A stretch of DNA of 46,923 bases from the NCBI GenBank assembly GCA_943354525.1, contig CALRCI010000001.1, positions 1-46,923 of the forward strand. Reading direction: 5' to 3'. The notes beneath the pieces are model-generated. The model did no database searches, was not told the origin of the DNA, and worked only from the letters and a program-made list of their open reading frames with translations. This document shows positions 24 to 43,752 of the stretch, piece by piece (the stretch's first letter is position 1; each line of letters begins with the position of its first letter). A program made the position numbers and the translations under genes. Source of the DNA: Candidatus Nomurabacteria bacterium (GTDB lineage: Bacteria; Patescibacteriota; Minisyncoccia; Phycocordibacterales; UBA9973).

Positions 24-281
24 CTAGAGCTTGGGCTGCGTGACCGGTGTGTCTTTGAGGCTGGCGTCGGCGCTGGCATTGTCTGCATCGAGTGCATTCA
101 GACTTGCATCAGTGCTCGTAATATCCTGATTGAGTGCGGTATATGCTTGAGCCGACATCTGCGTGTTCGACGCTGTTGTTCGAGTATTCGAATTTTTGCG
201 AACGAGCAACCAGAGACCGAGAATAACGAGGGCTAAAAGGATGACAATCACGATAATACTGTTGTTTTTTTGTGTTTGCAT
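24..281 (-). CDS. hypothetical small membrane-anchored protein (85 aa)
   Basis: Intact ORF. N-terminal hydrophobic helix IIVIVILLALVILGLWLLV followed by a Ser/Thr/Ala/Asp-rich tail. No family recognised. Confidence 0.45.
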   Translation of the reverse strand: MQTQKNNSIIVIVILLALVILGLWLLVRKNSNTRTTASNTQMSAQAYTALNQDITSTDASLNALDADNASADASLKDTPVTQPKL

Positions 282-361: not shown

Positions 362-485
362 GAACCCGTTTTGCATGAGACATTTTCTCCTGCGGCACGC
401 ATAAAATTCTGCTGAATTTTTGCTCTGGCTCGGCTACCCGCCTGCGCGAGACCTCCGGAGAAAATGTCTCATGCAAAACGGGTTC
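362..485 (-). repeat. Family-1 clamp element, copy A: 29-bp perfect arms (362-390 / 457-485) around a 66-nt conserved core (391-456)
   Basis: GAACCCGTTTTGCATGAGACATTTTCTCC and its exact reverse complement flank a core that matches the core at 30748-30813 at 55/66 positions (hand alignment, reverse complement). Confidence 0.85.
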
Positions 486-500
486 CGAAAACTAGTAGTG

Positions 501-1226
501 TTACATCAACCGTGTAATGACGAAAATGAAGACGGTACCGAGCACCGTGAGACCGATCGTTCCGAGTGAACTATGCTTGCTGTGCGCTTCGGGCAAGATA
601 TCGGACGCGCCGATGTAGAGCAGGAATCCCGCGAAGAATCCGAGATACAGTACGAGGAAATGCGGCGAAACATGGAAGAGAAATGTTGAGAGGACGCCAG
701 CGACCGGAGTGAGCGCATCGAGGAGAAGAAACCATTTCGCGCGGCCGATGCTGTTCTTGTGCGTGAGCATGAGTGTGACCGTGTTCATGCCGTCAGTGAA
801 ATCATGGGCGATGACGGCGACGGCGACGAGTACGCCGACGGCTGGAGAGACTTGAAAGCCGAGACCGATACCGACACCATCCATGAAACTGTGTCCGGCA
901 ATGGCGATAGCTGAGGCGATGCCGACATGCGGATGTTTGTGATCGGCATATTCATCTTCATGCGCGTGATGGATGACGATGACTTTCTCGAGGATGTGGA
1001 AGACAAGGAATCCGGCAACGAGCGCAATCATTGACTGGATCGGATTGAATTGGTGTTCGGTCACGAGCTCGATGATTTCAGGAAAGATATCGAATGCCAC
1101 GACGCCAAGCAGGACGCCGGCGGCGAATCCCATGATGAGGTGCAGACGGTTCTTCTGATGTATCGAAAAAAGTCCGCCGAGCGAGGTGGAAATGAATGTG
1201 GCAACCGAGAGTAATATGGCTTCCAT
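501..1226 (-). CDS. ZIP family divalent-metal (zinc) transporter
   Basis: 241-aa polytopic ORF with ZIP signatures GHSFMDGVGIGLGF and HDFTDGMN and a His-rich loop HHAHEDEYADHKHPH. TGCTATGAT -10 box ends 6 nt before the ATG. Confidence 0.9.
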   Translation of the reverse strand: MEAILLSVATFISTSLGGLFSIHQKNRLHLIMGFAAGVLLGVVAFDIFPEIIELVTEHQFNPIQSMIALVAGFLVFHILEKVIVIHHAHEDEYADHKHPHVGIASAIAIAGHSFMDGVGIGLGFQVSPAVGVLVAVAVIAHDFTDGMNTVTLMLTHKNSIGRAKWFLLLDALTPVAGVLSTFLFHVSPHFLVLYLGFFAGFLLYIGASDILPEAHSKHSSLGTIGLTVLGTVFIFVITRLM

Positions 1227-2534: not shown

Positions 2535-2930
2535 CTACCTGTTGAGAAAAGTAATGGTCAATTGGAGGACAGTCGCAAACGAAACCCAGAGGAAATACGG
2601 GATCTGCATATAGGTCACCCACTTGATATGCGGATAGACGGCTACCATGGCCCAGATGAGCGTGGCGAGTACGAGAATGACGTCGGCTGCGGCCAAATAA
2701 TTATTTTTTAGACCGAATTGGAGATAGGTGAACGAGAAATTGAAGACGAGATTAAGCACGAACGGCAGCGCAACCATCCATGGCAGTTGCCTTTTGAAGA
2801 CTGCGAGAAAAACCTTGCCGAATGAAATCGCAATCAACACAAACAGGACGATCCACACCGGCCCGAACAACCACGCCGGCGGTGCCCATGAAGGTTTGAG
2901 TAATGTTTGATACCAAGAAGCTGTTTGCAT
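2535..2930 (-). CDS. tspO: TspO/MBR family (tryptophan-rich sensory protein), short form (131 aa)
   Basis: N-terminus WYQTLLKPSWAPPAWLFGPVWIVLFVLIA is the typical TspO motif. Multi-TM and Trp-rich. Confidence 0.75.
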   Translation of the reverse strand: MQTASWYQTLLKPSWAPPAWLFGPVWIVLFVLIAISFGKVFLAVFKRQLPWMVALPFVLNLVFNFSFTYLQFGLKNNYLAAADVILVLATLIWAMVAVYPHIKWVTYMQIPYFLWVSFATVLQLTITFLNR

Positions 2931-6427: not shown

Positions 6428-7060
6428 ATGTTATTTCATACATCAAACAAAGTGACAGATGCAGGGCGGGCGCAGGGAGTAGCGGAAGTGCTGGAGAATG
6501 CCAAGCCGGACAGTGATTTCTATATATTGGTCGTCGGAGCAATACTGCTCGCGGCGAGCGGAATATTGCTCGACAGCATTCCGGTGCTCATTGCGAGCAT
6601 GGTTGTTGCACCGCTCATGTGGCCGATTCTCGGACTCTCGCTCGGCATCAATTCCGGCGACACGAAGCTCATCGGCCGTTCCCTTTCCATGCTCGTCATA
6701 TCTATGATTGTGGCGCTCGGTGTGTCCGCGCTCGGCGCACATATCGCACTGCAGTATTTCGGCTGGAATCTCCAAGGCATCTTCATCTCCTTCTCGCCGA
6801 ATTATTTCTTTGACGTCTTCATTGCCGTGATTTCCGGCGCGATTGCGGCCTACGGGTTGGTGCGGACCAAAGTCGGCGGTGCGATGACTGGCATCGGTAT
6901 CGCCGTCTCGCTCATGCCGCCGCTCGTGGCAACCGGGATCGGACTGGTTACGTCAAAAATACTTTCAGAGAGCGCATTGATGATATTCGCGCTCAACGTT
7001 CTCGGCATTCTCATCGCCAGCTGTATCACATTCGCCATTCTCAAAGTTAAAAGCAAATAA
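6428..7060 (+). CDS. DUF389-like integral membrane protein (210 aa)
   Basis: Segment ILLDSIPVLIASMVVAPLMWPILGLSLGI resembles the DUF389/TIGR00341 core motif. Several TM helices. TATACT box 6 nt upstream of the ATG. Confidence 0.6.
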   Translation: MLFHTSNKVTDAGRAQGVAEVLENAKPDSDFYILVVGAILLAASGILLDSIPVLIASMVVAPLMWPILGLSLGINSGDTKLIGRSLSMLVISMIVALGVSALGAHIALQYFGWNLQGIFISFSPNYFFDVFIAVISGAIAAYGLVRTKVGGAMTGIGIAVSLMPPLVATGIGLVTSKILSESALMIFALNVLGILIASCITFAILKVKSK

Positions 7061-7097
7061 GCATAAAAAAATCCCGATGATCGGGATTTTTTTATGC
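7061..7097. terminator. bidirectional 17-bp hairpin between the DUF389 gene and mscL
   Basis: GCATAAAAAAATCCCGA-tga-TCGGGATTTTTTTATGC. Ends 1 nt before the mscL stop codon. Confidence 0.85.
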
Positions 7098-7388
7098 TTA
7101 TTTCGCTTCGAGTTTGAAGAGTTTCCGTGCGATAACGAAGACGATAATCGCGAGAATGAGGAAGTTGAGGAATGCGGCGAGAAATGAGCCGTACGCGAGA
7201 TGAACTGAGCCCATCGAGAGTGTGGCTTCTTTCCACGATTCCGAGCCAAAGATCGGTGCGAGAAGCGGCATGACTATATCGTTGACAAACGAGGTCACAA
7301 GGGTGGTCGCGGCAGCACCCATGACAAATGCGATGGCGAGAGAAATAATCTTGTATTCTCGGAGGAATTGTGCAAATTCTTTGATCAT
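7098..7388 (-). CDS. mscL: large-conductance mechanosensitive channel MscL, short form (96 aa)
   Basis: N-terminus MIKEFAQFLREYKIISLAIAFVMGAAATTLVTSFVNDIVMPLLAPIFG is the MscL TM1 signature. The C-terminal helical bundle is largely absent. Confidence 0.85.
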   Translation of the reverse strand: MIKEFAQFLREYKIISLAIAFVMGAAATTLVTSFVNDIVMPLLAPIFGSESWKEATLSMGSVHLAYGSFLAAFLNFLILAIIVFVIARKLFKLEAK

Positions 7389-11480: not shown

Positions 11481-11556
11481 GGAGGCTATGGTGTAACGGT
11501 TAACACTAGAGTTTGTGGAACTCTCGATCTGGGTTCGATTCCCAGTAGCCTCCCCA
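11481..11556 (+). tRNA. tRNA-His (anticodon GTG) with genome-encoded G-1 and CCA
   Basis: Hand-folded cloverleaf: G(-1)+GAGGCTA acceptor, D arm GTGT/ACAC, anticodon arm AGAGT-TTGTGGA-ACTCT, T arm CTGGG-TTCGATT-CCCAG, TAGCCTC-C-CCA. Confidence 0.9.
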
Positions 11557-11598
11557 CATGAAAAAATCCCCGTTGAGGGATTTTTTCATGTGGGGAGG
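11549..11598. terminator. bidirectional 22-bp hairpin sharing 8 nt with the tRNA-His 3' end
   Basis: CCTCCCCACATGAAAAAATCCC-cgttga-GGGATTTTTTCATGTGGGGAGG. Ends 1 nt before the PCD stop codon. Confidence 0.85.
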
Positions 11599-11934
11599 CT
11601 AGGCTTTGACTGGCAATGCATCTATCTTTGCCGCGAGGATGAAATCATTCTCGGAAAGGCCTTTGATTGAATGTGTCGAGAGGTCGAGACGAACACGATT
11701 GTAGAAAATATGAATATCTGGATGATGCCCTTCACCTTCGGCGATGTCGGCGACATCGCGCACGAAATCTATGGCGGTGACAAAATCTTTGAATATGAAT
11801 TCTCGCGAAATAGATTTGTAATCTTCGGCAACACTCCATTTCGGCACTTCGCGCGCATACACATGCGCCGTCGCATCATCGAATGGTTCCACTCCCCCTT
11901 CACATGCCGTGCATTTTTTTGAGGTGAGATCCAT
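11599..11934 (-). CDS. pterin-4-alpha-carbinolamine dehydratase (PCD/DCoH family)
   Basis: 111 aa with the family motif GEGHHPDIHIFYNRVRLDLSTHS. Confidence 0.9.
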   Translation of the reverse strand: MDLTSKKCTACEGGVEPFDDATAHVYAREVPKWSVAEDYKSISREFIFKDFVTAIDFVRDVADIAEGEGHHPDIHIFYNRVRLDLSTHSIKGLSENDFILAAKIDALPVKA

Positions 11935-14672: not shown

Positions 14673-14744
14673 GTCCCCGTAGTTAAATGGATATAACTGC
14701 GGACTTCTAAGCCGCTATTGTAGGTTCGATTCCTACCGGGGACA
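14673..14744 (+). tRNA. tRNA-Arg (anticodon TCT)
   Basis: GTCCCCG acceptor, D arm GTTA/TAAC, anticodon loop CTTCTAA (one A:G mismatch at the base of the stem), T arm GTAGG-TTCGATT-CCTAC, CGGGGAC-A. Confidence 0.85.
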
Positions 14745-14788
14745 CCCAAAGAGAAAACGCCAACTGCTTGGCGTTTTCTCTTTGGGTG
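14743..14788 (+). terminator. 21-bp hairpin after tRNA-Arg(TCT)
   Basis: CACCCAAAGAGAAAACGCCAA-ctgc-TTGGCGTTTTCTCTTTGGGTG. The left arm starts inside the tRNA. Confidence 0.8.
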
Positions 14789-14919
14789 TCGGGCGGAGCG
14801 ATGTCGAGCTAGCAAGCGAGACCGCGAGCCGGGCGATTAGTAAATCGTGCCGAGAGGCATTCAAGAAAAATTATGAGCGACGGCGAATAATTTATTCGTG
14901 ACCACATAAATCCTATTTA

Positions 14920-31758: not shown

Positions 31759-31802
31759 CCCCGTTGATAATTCACGACGGCCGTCGTGAATTATCAACGG
31801 GG
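31759..31802 (-). terminator. 22-bp loop-less palindrome after Cys-rich paralog 3, flanked by a C10 run
   Basis: CCCCGTTGATAATTCACGACGG/CCGTCGTGAATTATCAACGGGG. Confidence 0.7.
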
Positions 31803-34735: not shown

Positions 34736-34770
34736 CTCCCCTGTGACTTGCCCGACAAGCGCTCCAGATA

Positions 34771-34815
34771 ATCTGTCGAAAACGCCAAGGCTAAGCCTTG
34801 GCGTTTTCGACAGAT
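34771..34815 (-). terminator. 21-bp hairpin abutting the polA stop codon
   Basis: ATCTGTCGAAAACGCCAAGGC-taa-GCCTTGGCGTTTTCGACAGAT. Confidence 0.8.
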
Positions 34816-37194
34816 TTATTTAATTTCCCCGTAATGCCGTCCCCGACCGGCGTGGACTGCGAGTGGAATATCGGTTTTGATGTGAAGATATGACTCAGGC
34901 AGGACATTGACCATTGATTCGGAAACGATTTTCTCGACTTGTTCGGCAACGTTGTTTTCGACTTCGTAGACTAGTTCGTCGTGGATCTGGAGAACAAGAT
35001 GGGCTTTGTCACTGAGACTGGCCTTGGCAAGAGCTTTCTCGGCGTGAATGATGGCGAGCTTCATGATGTCAGCAGCCGTGCCTTGAAGCGGTGCATTCGT
35101 AGCCGTGCGTTCGGCAAGTGCGCGCATAAACGGTAGCGATGAACGAATCGCCGGGAATTGTCGTTTGCGTCCAAAGAGTGTCAGCGTGTAGCCATGCGTG
35201 CGTGCGAATTCCTTTGTGCCTTCGAGATAGTCTCTGATTGTCGGAAACTGCCGAAAATAATTTTCATAGAAACTCTCCGCTTCGGCGCGCGATGAGCCGA
35301 GATTTTTGCGAAGCGCATTCACGCCCATGCCGTAGATGATGCCGAAGTTAATAACTTTCGCTCTGCGGCGCATATCATGATCCACTTTGTCTTGCGGAAC
35401 ATTGAAGACAAATGCGGCGACACCGGAGTGAACGTCTTTACCATCGCGGAAAATTTCTGACAATCGTTCGTCATGCGACATGAGCGCGAGCACGCGAAGT
35501 TCGATCTGCGAGTAGTCGAGCGCGACGAGTGTGTGCCCCGGCGCGGCAATGAAGCCATCGCGGATGGCGCGGCCGAGTTCGCTCTTGATCGGAATGTTCT
35601 GGAGATTCGGATTTTGCGATGAGAAACGTCCCGTCGCCGCACCGTGCTGGGAGAATGTCGCATGCAGTCTGCCGTCAGGACCGGTCATTTCCGGAATGAC
35701 GTCAATGTACGTCGAGAGTAATTTCTGCAATTCGCGGTACTTCATAATCTCGGCGATGATCGGGTGCGCGTCTTCAAGGCTCTCGAGCGCTTCGATCTTC
35801 GTCGTATATGTTCCTGTCGCGCTCTTCTTGCCGAGCGGTTTCAGACCGAGTTTGACGAAGAGAATTTCCGACATCTGCTTCGGAGAATTGATATTGAATT
35901 CCTCACCAGCGAGACGATAAATATTTTTCGTATAGGCATCGAGCGTCTTGTGATAGTCAGTTGAAAGTGTACTAAATACTTTTTTGTCTATCAGAATCCC
36001 TGTTTCTGTCATCTTCGTCACGATCGGCATGAGCGGCGCTTCGATTTCGTCGTACACTTCCTGTAATTTTTCCGTCTTCAATTTCGCAAAAATCTCCTTG
36101 CGCGCCTCGGCAAACGTACTTTTCTTCGTGTACGTGAGAATATCTTCAAGCGTCGGCGTCGTTTGTTCCGAATCGATGAGCCAAAGCGCAACTGAAGTTT
36201 CGAGAAGTTCCCGAGGAGAAATATCTTCCGTTGGTGTTTCTTCTATTGTTTCTTCGATTTTCTTCCCGCCGAATACTGTCTGCGCGCGACCAATGAGACT
36301 CTTGAATTCAAATTCTTTGAAAAGTGCCGTGATTTTCGCCATATCAATTTCTTCTCGAAATGATTTTTCCGGAATGACGAAATTAATCGGCGCATCACGA
36401 CGAATTGTGGCAAGTGTTTTCGAGAAGAGCGCTTCCTCTTCCCCATCCTTGAGCAGATTGAAAACTCGTTCAGTGATTCCTAATTTTTTAAATTTTTCTT
36501 CGGCGCCGGCTTTCTTGAGATCTTTGTACATAGCCTCGAGCGTGCCAAATTCATTGATGAGAATCGTCGCCGTCTTCTCGCCGACTCCGGCAATGCCGAT
36601 AATATTGTCTGACGGATCGCCACGCAAGCCTTTGTAGTCCGGCAAATATTTCGGTTTGAATCCGTAGCGTGTGACGACGGCGTCTTCATCGTAGAGGACA
36701 GTATCAGTCAGGCCTTTCTTCAACGTAAAGACTTGCACTTTTTTCCCCGTAACAAGCTGGAGCGTATCCATATCGCCCGAAGCGATTATGATTTCGATAT
36801 TCTTGTCATCTTTCATTTGCTCGACGATCGTACCGAGACAGTCGTCGGCTTCGAATCCTTCCTTGTCATAAATTGGAATTGAGAACGCTTCGAAAATTCT
36901 CCGTGAGGCGATAAGTTGCGAAACCAGTGCGTCATCAATCTTCGCGCGTTTGCCTTTGTATGCTTCGTACGCCTCATGGCGAAATGTCTTCTTCGGCAAG
37001 TCATAGCACGCCGCGACATAGTCGGGTTTGAGGTCGGTCACGATCTTCATGATCATCGTCGAGAGGCCGTAGAGCGCTCCTGTCGGCTCGCCCTTAGAGT
37101 CAGTAAATTCCGGCAAGGCATGATAGGCGCGATGAATAATCGCGTGCGAATCAAGCAGAATCAGGCGTTTTTTAGCGGATTTTGGAGTTGCCAT
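34816..37194 (-). CDS. polA: DNA polymerase I (5'-3' exonuclease + polymerase, 3'-5' exonuclease region nearly absent)
   Basis: 5'-nuclease N-terminus LILLDSHAIIHRAYHA. Pol motif A LVALDYSQIELRVLA, motif B RRRAKVINFGIIYGM, motif C VLQIHDELV. 792 aa. Confidence 0.95.
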   Translation of the reverse strand: MATPKSAKKRLILLDSHAIIHRAYHALPEFTDSKGEPTGALYGLSTMIMKIVTDLKPDYVAACYDLPKKTFRHEAYEAYKGKRAKIDDALVSQLIASRRIFEAFSIPIYDKEGFEADDCLGTIVEQMKDDKNIEIIIASGDMDTLQLVTGKKVQVFTLKKGLTDTVLYDEDAVVTRYGFKPKYLPDYKGLRGDPSDNIIGIAGVGEKTATILINEFGTLEAMYKDLKKAGAEEKFKKLGITERVFNLLKDGEEEALFSKTLATIRRDAPINFVIPEKSFREEIDMAKITALFKEFEFKSLIGRAQTVFGGKKIEETIEETPTEDISPRELLETSVALWLIDSEQTTPTLEDILTYTKKSTFAEARKEIFAKLKTEKLQEVYDEIEAPLMPIVTKMTETGILIDKKVFSTLSTDYHKTLDAYTKNIYRLAGEEFNINSPKQMSEILFVKLGLKPLGKKSATGTYTTKIEALESLEDAHPIIAEIMKYRELQKLLSTYIDVIPEMTGPDGRLHATFSQHGAATGRFSSQNPNLQNIPIKSELGRAIRDGFIAAPGHTLVALDYSQIELRVLALMSHDERLSEIFRDGKDVHSGVAAFVFNVPQDKVDHDMRRRAKVINFGIIYGMGVNALRKNLGSSRAEAESFYENYFRQFPTIRDYLEGTKEFARTHGYTLTLFGRKRQFPAIRSSLPFMRALAERTATNAPLQGTAADIMKLAIIHAEKALAKASLSDKAHLVLQIHDELVYEVENNVAEQVEKIVSESMVNVLPESYLHIKTDIPLAVHAGRGRHYGEIK

Positions 37195-43588: not shown

Positions 43589-43752
43589 GCCATCCTAAAA
43601 ATTCTTTCTTAAATTTTGTTTTTAAGATCGCAACGATTCTGTATGCGTCTTTTGTAATTTCCGTGCAAGACTTGAACCATTCGAAAAATGAATGGATCGT
43701 GAGGTTGCTCGGGCTCATTAAAAAAAATTTAAGAAAGAATTTTTAGGATGGC
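43589..43752 (+). repeat. Family-2 clamp element, copy 2: 29-bp perfect arms (43589-43617 / 43724-43752), a few extra imperfect pairs, and a ~92-nt core (43626-43717)
   Basis: GCCATCCTAAAAATTCTTTCTTAAATTTT and its exact reverse complement. The core shares the blocks TCGCAACGAT.CTGTAT.CGT, TTCCGTGCAAGACT and AGGTTGCTCGG.CTCA with copy 1. Confidence 0.85.

Follow-up and report, generated by a model that had tools for sequence, protein, structure and literature searches.

We analyzed a long inverted repeat at positions 362-485 of a 46,923-nt stretch of DNA from Candidatus Nomurabacteria bacterium (NCBI GenBank assembly GCA_943354525.1, contig CALRCI010000001.1, positions 1 to 46,923 of the forward strand); this whole stretch is called the window below. 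The repeat stands directly after a gene of a ZIP-family metal transporter. An initial annotation, made from the sequence alone, described it as copy A of a "clamp" element with two other copies in the window, B and C, and proposed that it may itself terminate transcription of the ZIP gene. We found that copy A is one member of a family of structured repeats dispersed over the genome and over the genomes of related bacteria. The features of the locus are listed here; genes were taken from a list of open reading frames (ORFs), and the arms are named in the sense direction of the repeat.

24..281, minus strand: gene of 85 aa with a hydrophobic membrane-like segment, downstream of the element (ORF list)
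362..485, minus strand: the whole element, copy A, subfamily S2 (covariance model R1, 106.9 bits on the minus strand)
362..390, minus strand: 3' arm of the closing stem P1; no T-run follows the arm
391..456, minus strand: conserved core, a three-way junction (RNAalifold on 12 copies of this genome, pair counts on 106 copies)
399..423, minus strand: hairpin P4, GCAAAAAUUC-AGCA-GAAUUUU-A-UGC (columns 100-131 of alignment A3)
428..442, minus strand: conserved block GGCGGGUAGCCGAGC, formed by hairpin P3 (GGC-GGGUA-GCC) and the junction GAG (comparison of S1-S3 copies)
457..485, minus strand: 5' arm of the closing stem P1, a perfect 29-bp complement of 362-390; locus-specific
501..1226, minus strand: gene of a ZIP-family metal (zinc/iron) transporter (ORF list; Pfam PF02535 Zip on an identical protein)

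The sense strand of the repeat family is the minus strand at copy A, that is, the strand of the ZIP gene. The arms 362-390 (GAACCCGTTTTGCATGAGACATTTTCTCC) and 457-485 are perfect reverse complements over 29 bp and enclose a core of 66 nt (391-456); the sequence itself and an exact-pairing script agree on this with the initial annotation. The repeat finder (pair I8) extends the pairing to 34 nt with 94% complementarity, adding two more pairs past an internal mismatch, and about 3e-11 such inverted pairs are expected in the window by chance. Folded as RNA, copy A has an energy of -70.5 kcal/mol (z = -11.2 in comparison with shuffled sequences), and either strand folds at about -70 kcal/mol with z of about -11. 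The inner part of the 5' arm, UUUUCUCC, is common to the other copies of subfamily S2.

The ZIP stop codon occupies 501-503, and the gap of 15 nt between it and copy A (486-500) is as the annotation had reported. The 85-aa gene, which has no Pfam match, begins 80 nt beyond copy A on the minus strand. A TATAAT hexamer lies between them at 314-319 on the same strand and may be a promoter. The spacer from the ZIP gene to the next gene (282-500, 219 nt) contains no terminator-like site according to a consensus scan, which agrees with the earlier remark that no separate terminator is present, and copy A is its sole strong hairpin.

The membership of copy A in a repeat family has strong statistical grounds. 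Its core matches the core of copy B with a BLAST E-value of 3.8e-17 (within the genome), and the family covariance model R1 matches copy A over its full length (1-90) on the minus strand with E = 2e-25. Thus the similarity of the cores, on which the initial annotation had staked its reading, is significant. A genome-wide census gave 13 close copies that fall into three subfamilies, S1, S2, and S3; copies B and C belong to S1. Copy A had been called the most divergent copy. This is correct inside the window, where it shares 55 of 66 core positions with copy B and 47 of 66 with copy C, and incorrect for the genome as a whole, where it has four siblings in the five-member subfamily S2 (at C1:53445 and on C6, C38, and C44; copies outside the window are designated by contig and position) with a core identity to copy A of 58-63 of 66. 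Cores of S2 have the edges GGAGGTCTCGCGCAGG ... GTGCCGCA and an inner stem TTTTYCC/GGRAAAA.

The covariance model adds 18 copies (subfamily S4 and a part of S5), 14 of which were inspected individually, and brings the number of model matches in this genome to 31. A census of palindromes adds a few further copies. The total is at least 33 copies in a genome of 564 kb, or about 0.7% of the DNA, each of about 95-130 nt. Across the family, the element length is about 90-165 nt and the length of the conserved core is about 50-66 nt.

Model matches were found in 28 of the 41 genomes of the same family or order, this genome included (1-16 matches in each relative), and in only six of 201 genomes sampled evenly over the phylum, the latter under stricter filters. 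The exact pattern of the S1-S3 core occurs in 59 stretches of genome records, which are named as Parcubacteria/Paceibacterota metagenome-assembled genomes (MAGs). The titles of these records mention the Parcubacteria group, Paceibacterota, Nomurabacteria, Zambryskiibacteriota, Taylorbacteria, and Portnoybacteria, and some are labelled Saccharibacteria. Copies of the family are thus scattered over very small genomes of a single clade of Paceibacteria at the level of an order (Parcubacteria, candidate phyla radiation (CPR)).

Known RNA families do not account for the element. At the gathering thresholds of Rfam 15 the window gives tRNAs only. With E-values up to 10, the region 300-560 matches only hairpins of microRNA precursors, as noise that does not exceed 28 bits, and, at chance level, one CRISPR repeat (13.7 bits, E = 9.8). 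Likewise, a limited keyword search of the literature on repeats and structured RNAs of CPR/Patescibacteria did not bring up the family. Hammerhead, twister, and other small ribozymes were considered and rejected, as there is no Rfam match and the junction has no hammerhead-like conserved core motif.

The fold of the family was derived from 106 copies aligned to the model; they come from this genome and from 27 relatives belonging to its family or order. Standard pairs make up 97.0% of the pair cells and all 31 pairs change on both sides, figures that are somewhat inflated because the alignment was fitted to the model. When the partners are moved by 1-3 columns as a control, only 42-50% of the cells are paired; this control and the independent RNAalifold prediction on 12 copies argue that the pairing signal is real. 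The fold is a three-way junction that consists of a long stem P1, a short stem P2, a stem bearing hairpin P3, and hairpin P4. The conserved part comprises the junction nucleotides GCG.C.AG, GAGC,.GAG, and UAUGCGU. In P4 (columns 100-131 of alignment A3) 99% of cells are paired and every pair covaries; the distal stem differs among the copies with compensation, while the A.CA loop is kept. The variants of P4 are distributed as a mosaic over the subfamilies, which suggests recombination among copies. The block GGCGGGUAGCCGAGC is exact in 10 of the 13 S1-S3 copies, and the remaining three have the compensated form GCC...GGC: the P3 stem covaries in subfamily S3 (GGC/GCC to GCC/GGC).

The blocks named in the initial annotation are all present, namely GGAGGTCTCGCGCAGG versus TGAGACCGCGCGGAGG at the core edges, GGCGGGTAGCCGAGC, and the internal hairpin, which like the GGCGGGTAGCC block proved to be a conserved part of the fold. 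The annotation also supposed that a comparison of copy A with copies B and C would help to define the constrained part of the element, and this is borne out, since the edge differences fall on paired columns and are compensatory. In particular, GT...GC in copy A corresponds to AC...GT in copy B (G-C to A-U and U.G to C-G), and CT...AG corresponds to CG...CG (U-A to G-C). These differences are therefore evidence for the fold rather than a marker of unconstrained sequence.

The fold is also asymmetric with respect to the strands. Among non-Watson-Crick cells of the core helices, G-U occurs 54 times and A-C five times (p = 2e-11); with the two least reliable pairs omitted, the counts are still 29 and 5. 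Ungapped arms show the same bias, with 2094 Watson-Crick, 38 G-U, 11 A-C, and 30 other cells (p = 1e-4). A transition yields G-T or A-C equally often depending on the strand, so the excess of G-U indicates that it is the fold of the sense strand that is selected, either as RNA or as single-stranded DNA.

The antisense of UAUGCGU and P4 reads CATAAAAT or CATAATTT at the same place in all copies (401-407 of the window on the plus strand). Both have the form TAnnnT of a -10-like hexamer that points outward through the arm, and this could be a chance consequence of an AU-rich stem.

In contrast to the core, the terminal part of the stem is private. Members of a subfamily share only the inner 7-10 bp, and the terminal 15-25 bp are particular to each locus. 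The arm of copy A has no other match in the genome. The copies at C10 and C1:30715 have identical cores (66 of 66) and unrelated arms. Changes in one arm, substitutions as well as indels, have counterparts in the other. Between the copies at C1:54380 and C1:55830 the arms differ at seven positions, including an indel of 1 nt, and each of these differences is mirrored in the other arm; the core is shared, and the flanks have one difference in the 60 nt compared. A second case comes from the MAG of Parcubacteria group bacterium SLM_LV1_02b-J04, where the related copies L190 and L191 differ by a mirrored indel of 2 nt. L191 (JBCLGW010000006.1, match 2810-2855, minus strand) has perfect arms of 55 bp around the same core, and that MAG has about 20 copies, several of them with related arms (GGTAGCAACAAAAAAATAAAA...). 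Selection on pairing would hardly produce mirrored indels, which thus point to copying of one arm from the other at the DNA level. Possible routes are fold-back synthesis, template switching, and mismatch correction in the hairpin.

Several observations accompany these arms. The two C1 copies, both of subfamily S3, lie 1.4 kb apart in inverted orientation (C1:54340-54540 and C1:55790-55983). The copy at C1:54380 has a further outer inverted repeat (AGAAAATATGGGGCAAATTCTCA / TGAGAATTTGCCCCATATTTTCT), which makes a nested larger palindrome, and the copy on the C1:55830 side has only a part of this outer repeat (GGCAAATTCTCA) before the contig ends. In addition, an unrelated family 2 has cores of 81-106 nt within the same kind of private perfect stems of 28-32 bp; its sites are 1992-2147 and 43589-43752 in the window and C3:24392-24546, C15:9597-9742, and C16:7328-7464 in the genome, which suggests that it has more copies than the two in the window. 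The possibility that arms serve as guides to targets in the same genome was rejected: genomic matches are of at most 17 nt and of chance level, the best being an exact 16-mer from the arm of copy B (E = 0.002).

Long perfect stems are not unique to the element. In the 564-kb genome, 109 inverted repeats are perfect over arms of 16 bp or more, which makes such stems a habit of the genome. In 57 of these the loop is 0-10 nt long (12 are loopless), and most of the 57 are terminators of the A-tract/T-tract type. Ordinary terminators of this type are extended into perfect palindromes of 20-28 bp, for example at 11546-11601, 7055-7103, and 31759-31802 of the window. This pattern suggests a genome-wide process that perfects or lengthens palindromes.

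The position of copies relative to genes was counted with simple longest-ORF gene calls. Nearly every copy starts about 4-45 nt, mostly 8-20 nt, past a stop codon, and copy A, with its 15 nt, is no exception. The tandem spacers of this genome contain 15 copies that run in the direction of the genes and 10 that run against it, compared with 5 and 15 in the relatives. The pooled orientation (20 same versus 25 opposite, p = 0.55) is random. Convergent spacers also hold copies. At most about four of about 60 copies lie in apparently divergent, promoter-only spacers, and all of these rest on rough ORF calls.

There is no link of the element to ZIP genes as such. We considered 80 metagenome loci with ZIP orthologues (68-78% aa identity). 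None of them has a model match within 2.5 kb, and none shows a palindrome of 14 bp or more behind the stop codon; a canonical terminator is present at nine. The element is therefore a lineage-specific addition to the spacer studied here. None of the 80 loci shares neighbouring genes with the window, so they offer no homologous spacer for an empty-site comparison. A signal or regulator specific to ZIP was thus rejected, given a dispersed family and no orthologue locus with the element.

In our opinion copy A is probably a non-autonomous, dispersed, structured palindromic repeat of mobile origin and not a signal of the ZIP gene. Its copies follow stop codons of unrelated genes in both orientations, and whole hairpins recur elsewhere, as would be expected from a repeat of the mobile type. 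The selected strand fold would mean that a single-stranded intermediate, DNA or RNA, is recognized during spread or maintenance. The arms would be kept perfectly complementary through templated copying from arm to arm at the DNA level. Copy A is co-oriented with the ZIP gene and would therefore be transcribed as its 3' untranslated region (UTR) and form the perfect stem of 29 bp. In the 3' UTR this stem could be a substrate of RNase III or a block to 3' exonucleases, and possibly a pause or stop that does not depend on a U-tract. Any effect on the end or processing of the ZIP transcript would then be a by-product or a secondarily recruited role.

A number of results weigh against a mobile origin. 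The first group concerns the machinery. No mobilizing enzyme was identified in searches for Y1 and TnpB. TnpB is absent. Y1 (IS200/RAYT-like) domains occur in 19 of the 41 genomes, in 16 of 28 genomes with the element and in three of 13 without it (p = 0.05), and genomes with a high copy number have no Y1/RAYT-like transposases. The two RAYT-like genes of this genome, C21:4615-5377 (plus strand) and C8:7707-8418 (minus strand), are flanked by other palindromes that resemble repetitive extragenic palindromes (REPs), namely CTGTGGAAAACGCCAAGGC... and CAGGCCGGG... Mobilization of the IS200/IS605 type was therefore rejected: TnpB is missing, the association with Y1 is weak, and the Y1 transposases are tied to other repeats.

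The second group concerns the insertion sites. There is no target-site duplication at copy A, and no direct repeat flanks the other S1-S3 copies. No empty site or presence/absence polymorphism was found. Exact look-ups with the proteins of three neighbouring genes led only to contigs of ERZ27280317 and ERZ27280315, the sole other assemblies with these genes, and the contigs are 100% identical. Copy A is 100% identical in a contig of the ENA metagenome assembly ERZ27280317, which is possibly the source assembly of the genome, and copy B is 100% identical in both ERZ27280317 and ERZ27280315. A case of a hairpin at two places also calls for some caution: an identical 113-nt hairpin, arms included, stands in different flanks at C49 and C1:55830, the latter at a contig end, where a repeat-induced assembly error is possible.

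The third group suggests a function for the host. At the orthologous loci L187 and L225 of two species the flanks are 59-70% identical, while the identity of the element is about 92% as a whole and about 98% without the distal stem of P4, which has three flipped pairs. This single pair of loci points to either strong constraint (host function) or homogenization. Additionally, hairpins that resemble canonical terminators are found in about five of the 33 copy-holding 3' spacers and in 115 of the 285 other 3' spacers (p = 0.004), and the RNA-binding domain of Rho (PF07497) was not detected in the assembly, which is 90.7% complete. Both the depletion of terminators and the lack of the Rho domain fit a real terminator-like role.

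Two observations touch on these subjects. Both RAYT-like Y1 genes have the HUH motif PNHFHLL and the tyrosine motif YIHLNP, and each has its own REP-like palindrome, which is the classic REP/RAYT arrangement in a CPR genome. One REP-like family, CTGTGGAAAACGCCAAGGC-GTA-GCCTTGGCGTTTTCCACAG, has about 15 copies in the genome, the other is the CAGGCCGGGCC family, and possible related palindromes lie in the window at 34770-34816 and 14741-14790. In many copies of other subfamilies, for example the S4 copies C5:9106-9198, C37:1645-1749, and C30:4410-4512, a motif GCGRAG/GRAGCG or GAGCGA stands just outside both arms in direct, not inverted, orientation, and the same holds for L016, L023, L025, L028, L029, and L041 of the relatives. 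This GAGCG-like motif, which is missing from all S1-S3 copies including copy A, could have arisen as a target-site duplication, mark a preferred target, or belong to the element as its conserved outer part.

The host-function results are most naturally used by the first rival explanation, according to which the element is a functional U-tract-independent terminator or 3'-end stabilizer that, in a genome without Rho, has taken the place of the usual terminator behind the ZIP gene and about 30 others. The long perfect stem would act in either orientation, and the self-folding core would only hold the arms close. The random orientation of copies suits a symmetric stem. The places of the copies, shortly after stop codons in tandem and convergent spacers and almost never in divergent ones, suit such a role as well, and so does copy A as the only strong hairpin of its spacer, close to the ZIP stop codon and upstream of the TATAAT hexamer. 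The depletion of canonical terminators, the missing Rho domain, and the high conservation of the L187/L225 copies relative to their flanks are further points in favor. The copies at C43, C44, C6, and C49 show an A-tract/T-tract polarity in the outer arms.

However, the U-tract that defines an intrinsic terminator is missing from copy A. Its stem is followed by AGGCCUGUGUAAAAAAC on the ZIP strand and by CGAAAACUAGUAGUG on the opposite strand, with a T-tract on neither side, and the consensus terminator scan did not flag it. The same is true of the family: a T-run just outside the stem was found in three of 70 copies on the sense strand and in seven of 70 on the antisense strand, and the outer 5' arms have 25 A-runs and 19 T-runs, that is, no enrichment of A-runs. 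For these reasons the idea that arms are, as a general rule, former canonical terminators was rejected. The ordinary hairpins of the genome are classic A-tract/T-tract terminators, and canonical ones are used in 40% of 3' spacers. The terminator explanation also does not say why the fold of one strand is selected (G-U 54 versus A-C 5) when orientation is random or why a junction of 60 nt is conserved, and the ZIP orthologues manage without the element. We consider this explanation possible but unlikely. The earlier suggestion that copy A is itself the terminator is thus not supported in the canonical sense, and the initial reading of copy A as a whole is partly supported.

A role at the 3' end through a non-canonical mechanism is plausible for copy A: it could stop or pause transcription, be a site of processing, or block exonucleases. 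A perfect stem of 29 bp is a textbook RNase III substrate. RNase III is encoded in the genome (a Ribonucleas_3_3 match at C4:24031-24426, 129 bits), and copy A has more than the approximately 20 bp of uninterrupted double-stranded RNA that the enzyme requires at least. It is in this sense a predicted substrate.

A broader version would unite the copying of arms with a place at gene ends. It holds that the element is self-palindromizing: a junction module whose stems are written, kept, and rewritten by DNA synthesis from arm to arm and which occupies a U-tract-free terminator or 3'-end niche in Paceibacteria without Rho. Templated synthesis of this kind would account for the mirrored indels. 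We regard the full combination as doubtful, with a lower probability than that of the terminator explanation.

It is improbable that the element is a promoterless small-RNA gene, from which RNase III would excise a three-way-junction RNA out of passing transcripts for action in trans. Strong selection on the sense-strand fold and conserved junction nucleotides would be expected of such a gene; stems of at least 20 bp are suited to RNase III, the rnc gene is present, and the copies lie within transcribed 3' regions. However, about half of the copies are antisense to the neighbouring genes (20 versus 25), so that only half would give the sense RNA, and the arms have no conserved promoter. The mirrored indels indicate copying of arms at the DNA level and not selection on RNA pairing.

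The least probable explanation is that a small core unit was inserted into the tip of a pre-existing long palindromic terminator of the ZIP gene, the arms being the old stem: the 57 short-loop palindromes of the genome and the outer arms minus the conserved inner stem (15-26 bp) do have the same length range, and the copies at C6, C44, C49, and C43 look terminator-like once the unit is removed, but the arms of copy A (GAACCCGTTTTGCATGAGACA/TGTCTCATGCAAAACGGGTTC) without the unit show no terminator polarity, arms are not terminator-like family-wide, whole hairpins recur with their arms at other loci and paralogues have related arms, and the copy at C4:21006 has arms of only 8 bp and lies beside a terminator rather than inside one.

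A mobile-type repeat of this kind has several implications. CPR genomes are among the smallest and most streamlined known, yet this genome of 564 kb keeps at least 33 structured repeats, and the same fold persists over a whole order. Should the stems prove to be made by templated copying, bacteria would have a new way of producing long palindromes. Should the elements end or process transcripts, they would reveal the punctuation of operons in ultra-small bacteria without Rho. For annotation, the hairpin after the ZIP gene should not be taken for a ZIP-specific regulator.

Among known systems, Rickettsia palindromic elements (RPEs) are similar to the element: they are repeats of about 105-146 bp that form hairpins, have no known transposase, and are scattered over reduced genomes of host-dependent bacteria, where many unrelated contexts tolerate them. 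Conservation of RPEs extends over the full length, and in-frame insertions in genes are what they are best known for. Unlike them, the element has a private and perfectly paired outer stem and a covarying three-way-junction tip, and copy A is intergenic. Integron attC sites were considered as well and rejected, since attC has a conserved base and a variable tip, which is the reverse of the element.

RPE, ERIC/IRU, Correia (CREE) repeats, and SPRITE are all included in a review of repeat classes (PMC3184786). ERIC/IRU and Correia repeats are miniature inverted-repeat transposable elements (MITEs); like our element, they are imperfect palindromes of about 100-160 bp that are co-transcribed with neighbouring genes (PMC3184786). 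They can change the stability or processing of mRNA, and an ERIC copy downstream of a gene makes an RNase E site (PMC3184786). The definition of a MITE includes conserved terminal inverted repeats and a target-site duplication, which is TA for the ERIC type (PMC3184786). The element does not fit this definition of MITEs of the Correia, ERIC, or RUP type: its terminal inverted repeats are not conserved between copies, the S1-S3 copies have no target-site duplication, and copy A has unique terminal arms without a flanking direct repeat.

SPRITE, the Streptococcus pneumoniae Rho-independent terminator-like element, is like our element an interspersed repeat, about 105 bp long, and is found at the 3' ends of genes in the niche of a terminator (PMC3184786). 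By its name, SPRITE resembles a canonical Rho-independent terminator, whereas copy A has no U-tract and carries a structured insert of 66 nt at its tip. A canonical intrinsic terminator shares with copy A a stable hairpin just past the stop codon and differs from it in having a U-tract, a stem of about 5-12 bp instead of 29 bp, and no structured "loop" of 66 nt.

REP/REPIN sequences are likewise hairpin repeats at gene 3' ends with a strand-specific structure in single strands, and REP stems block 3' exonucleases. REPs, which RAYT (Y1 HUH) transposases mobilize, are conserved as palindromes over about 20-40 nt and are found flanking their own RAYT gene; the link of the clamp family to RAYT is weak (p = 0.05), and neither RAYT-like gene is flanked by a repeat of this family. 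The closest analogues of the element are RPE, the ERIC/Correia MITEs, REP elements, and the terminator-like SPRITE. Its combination of a covarying junction selected on one strand, private, perfectly paired stems with mirrored indels, and a terminator-like place without terminator features was not found among the repeat classes of the review (PMC3184786).

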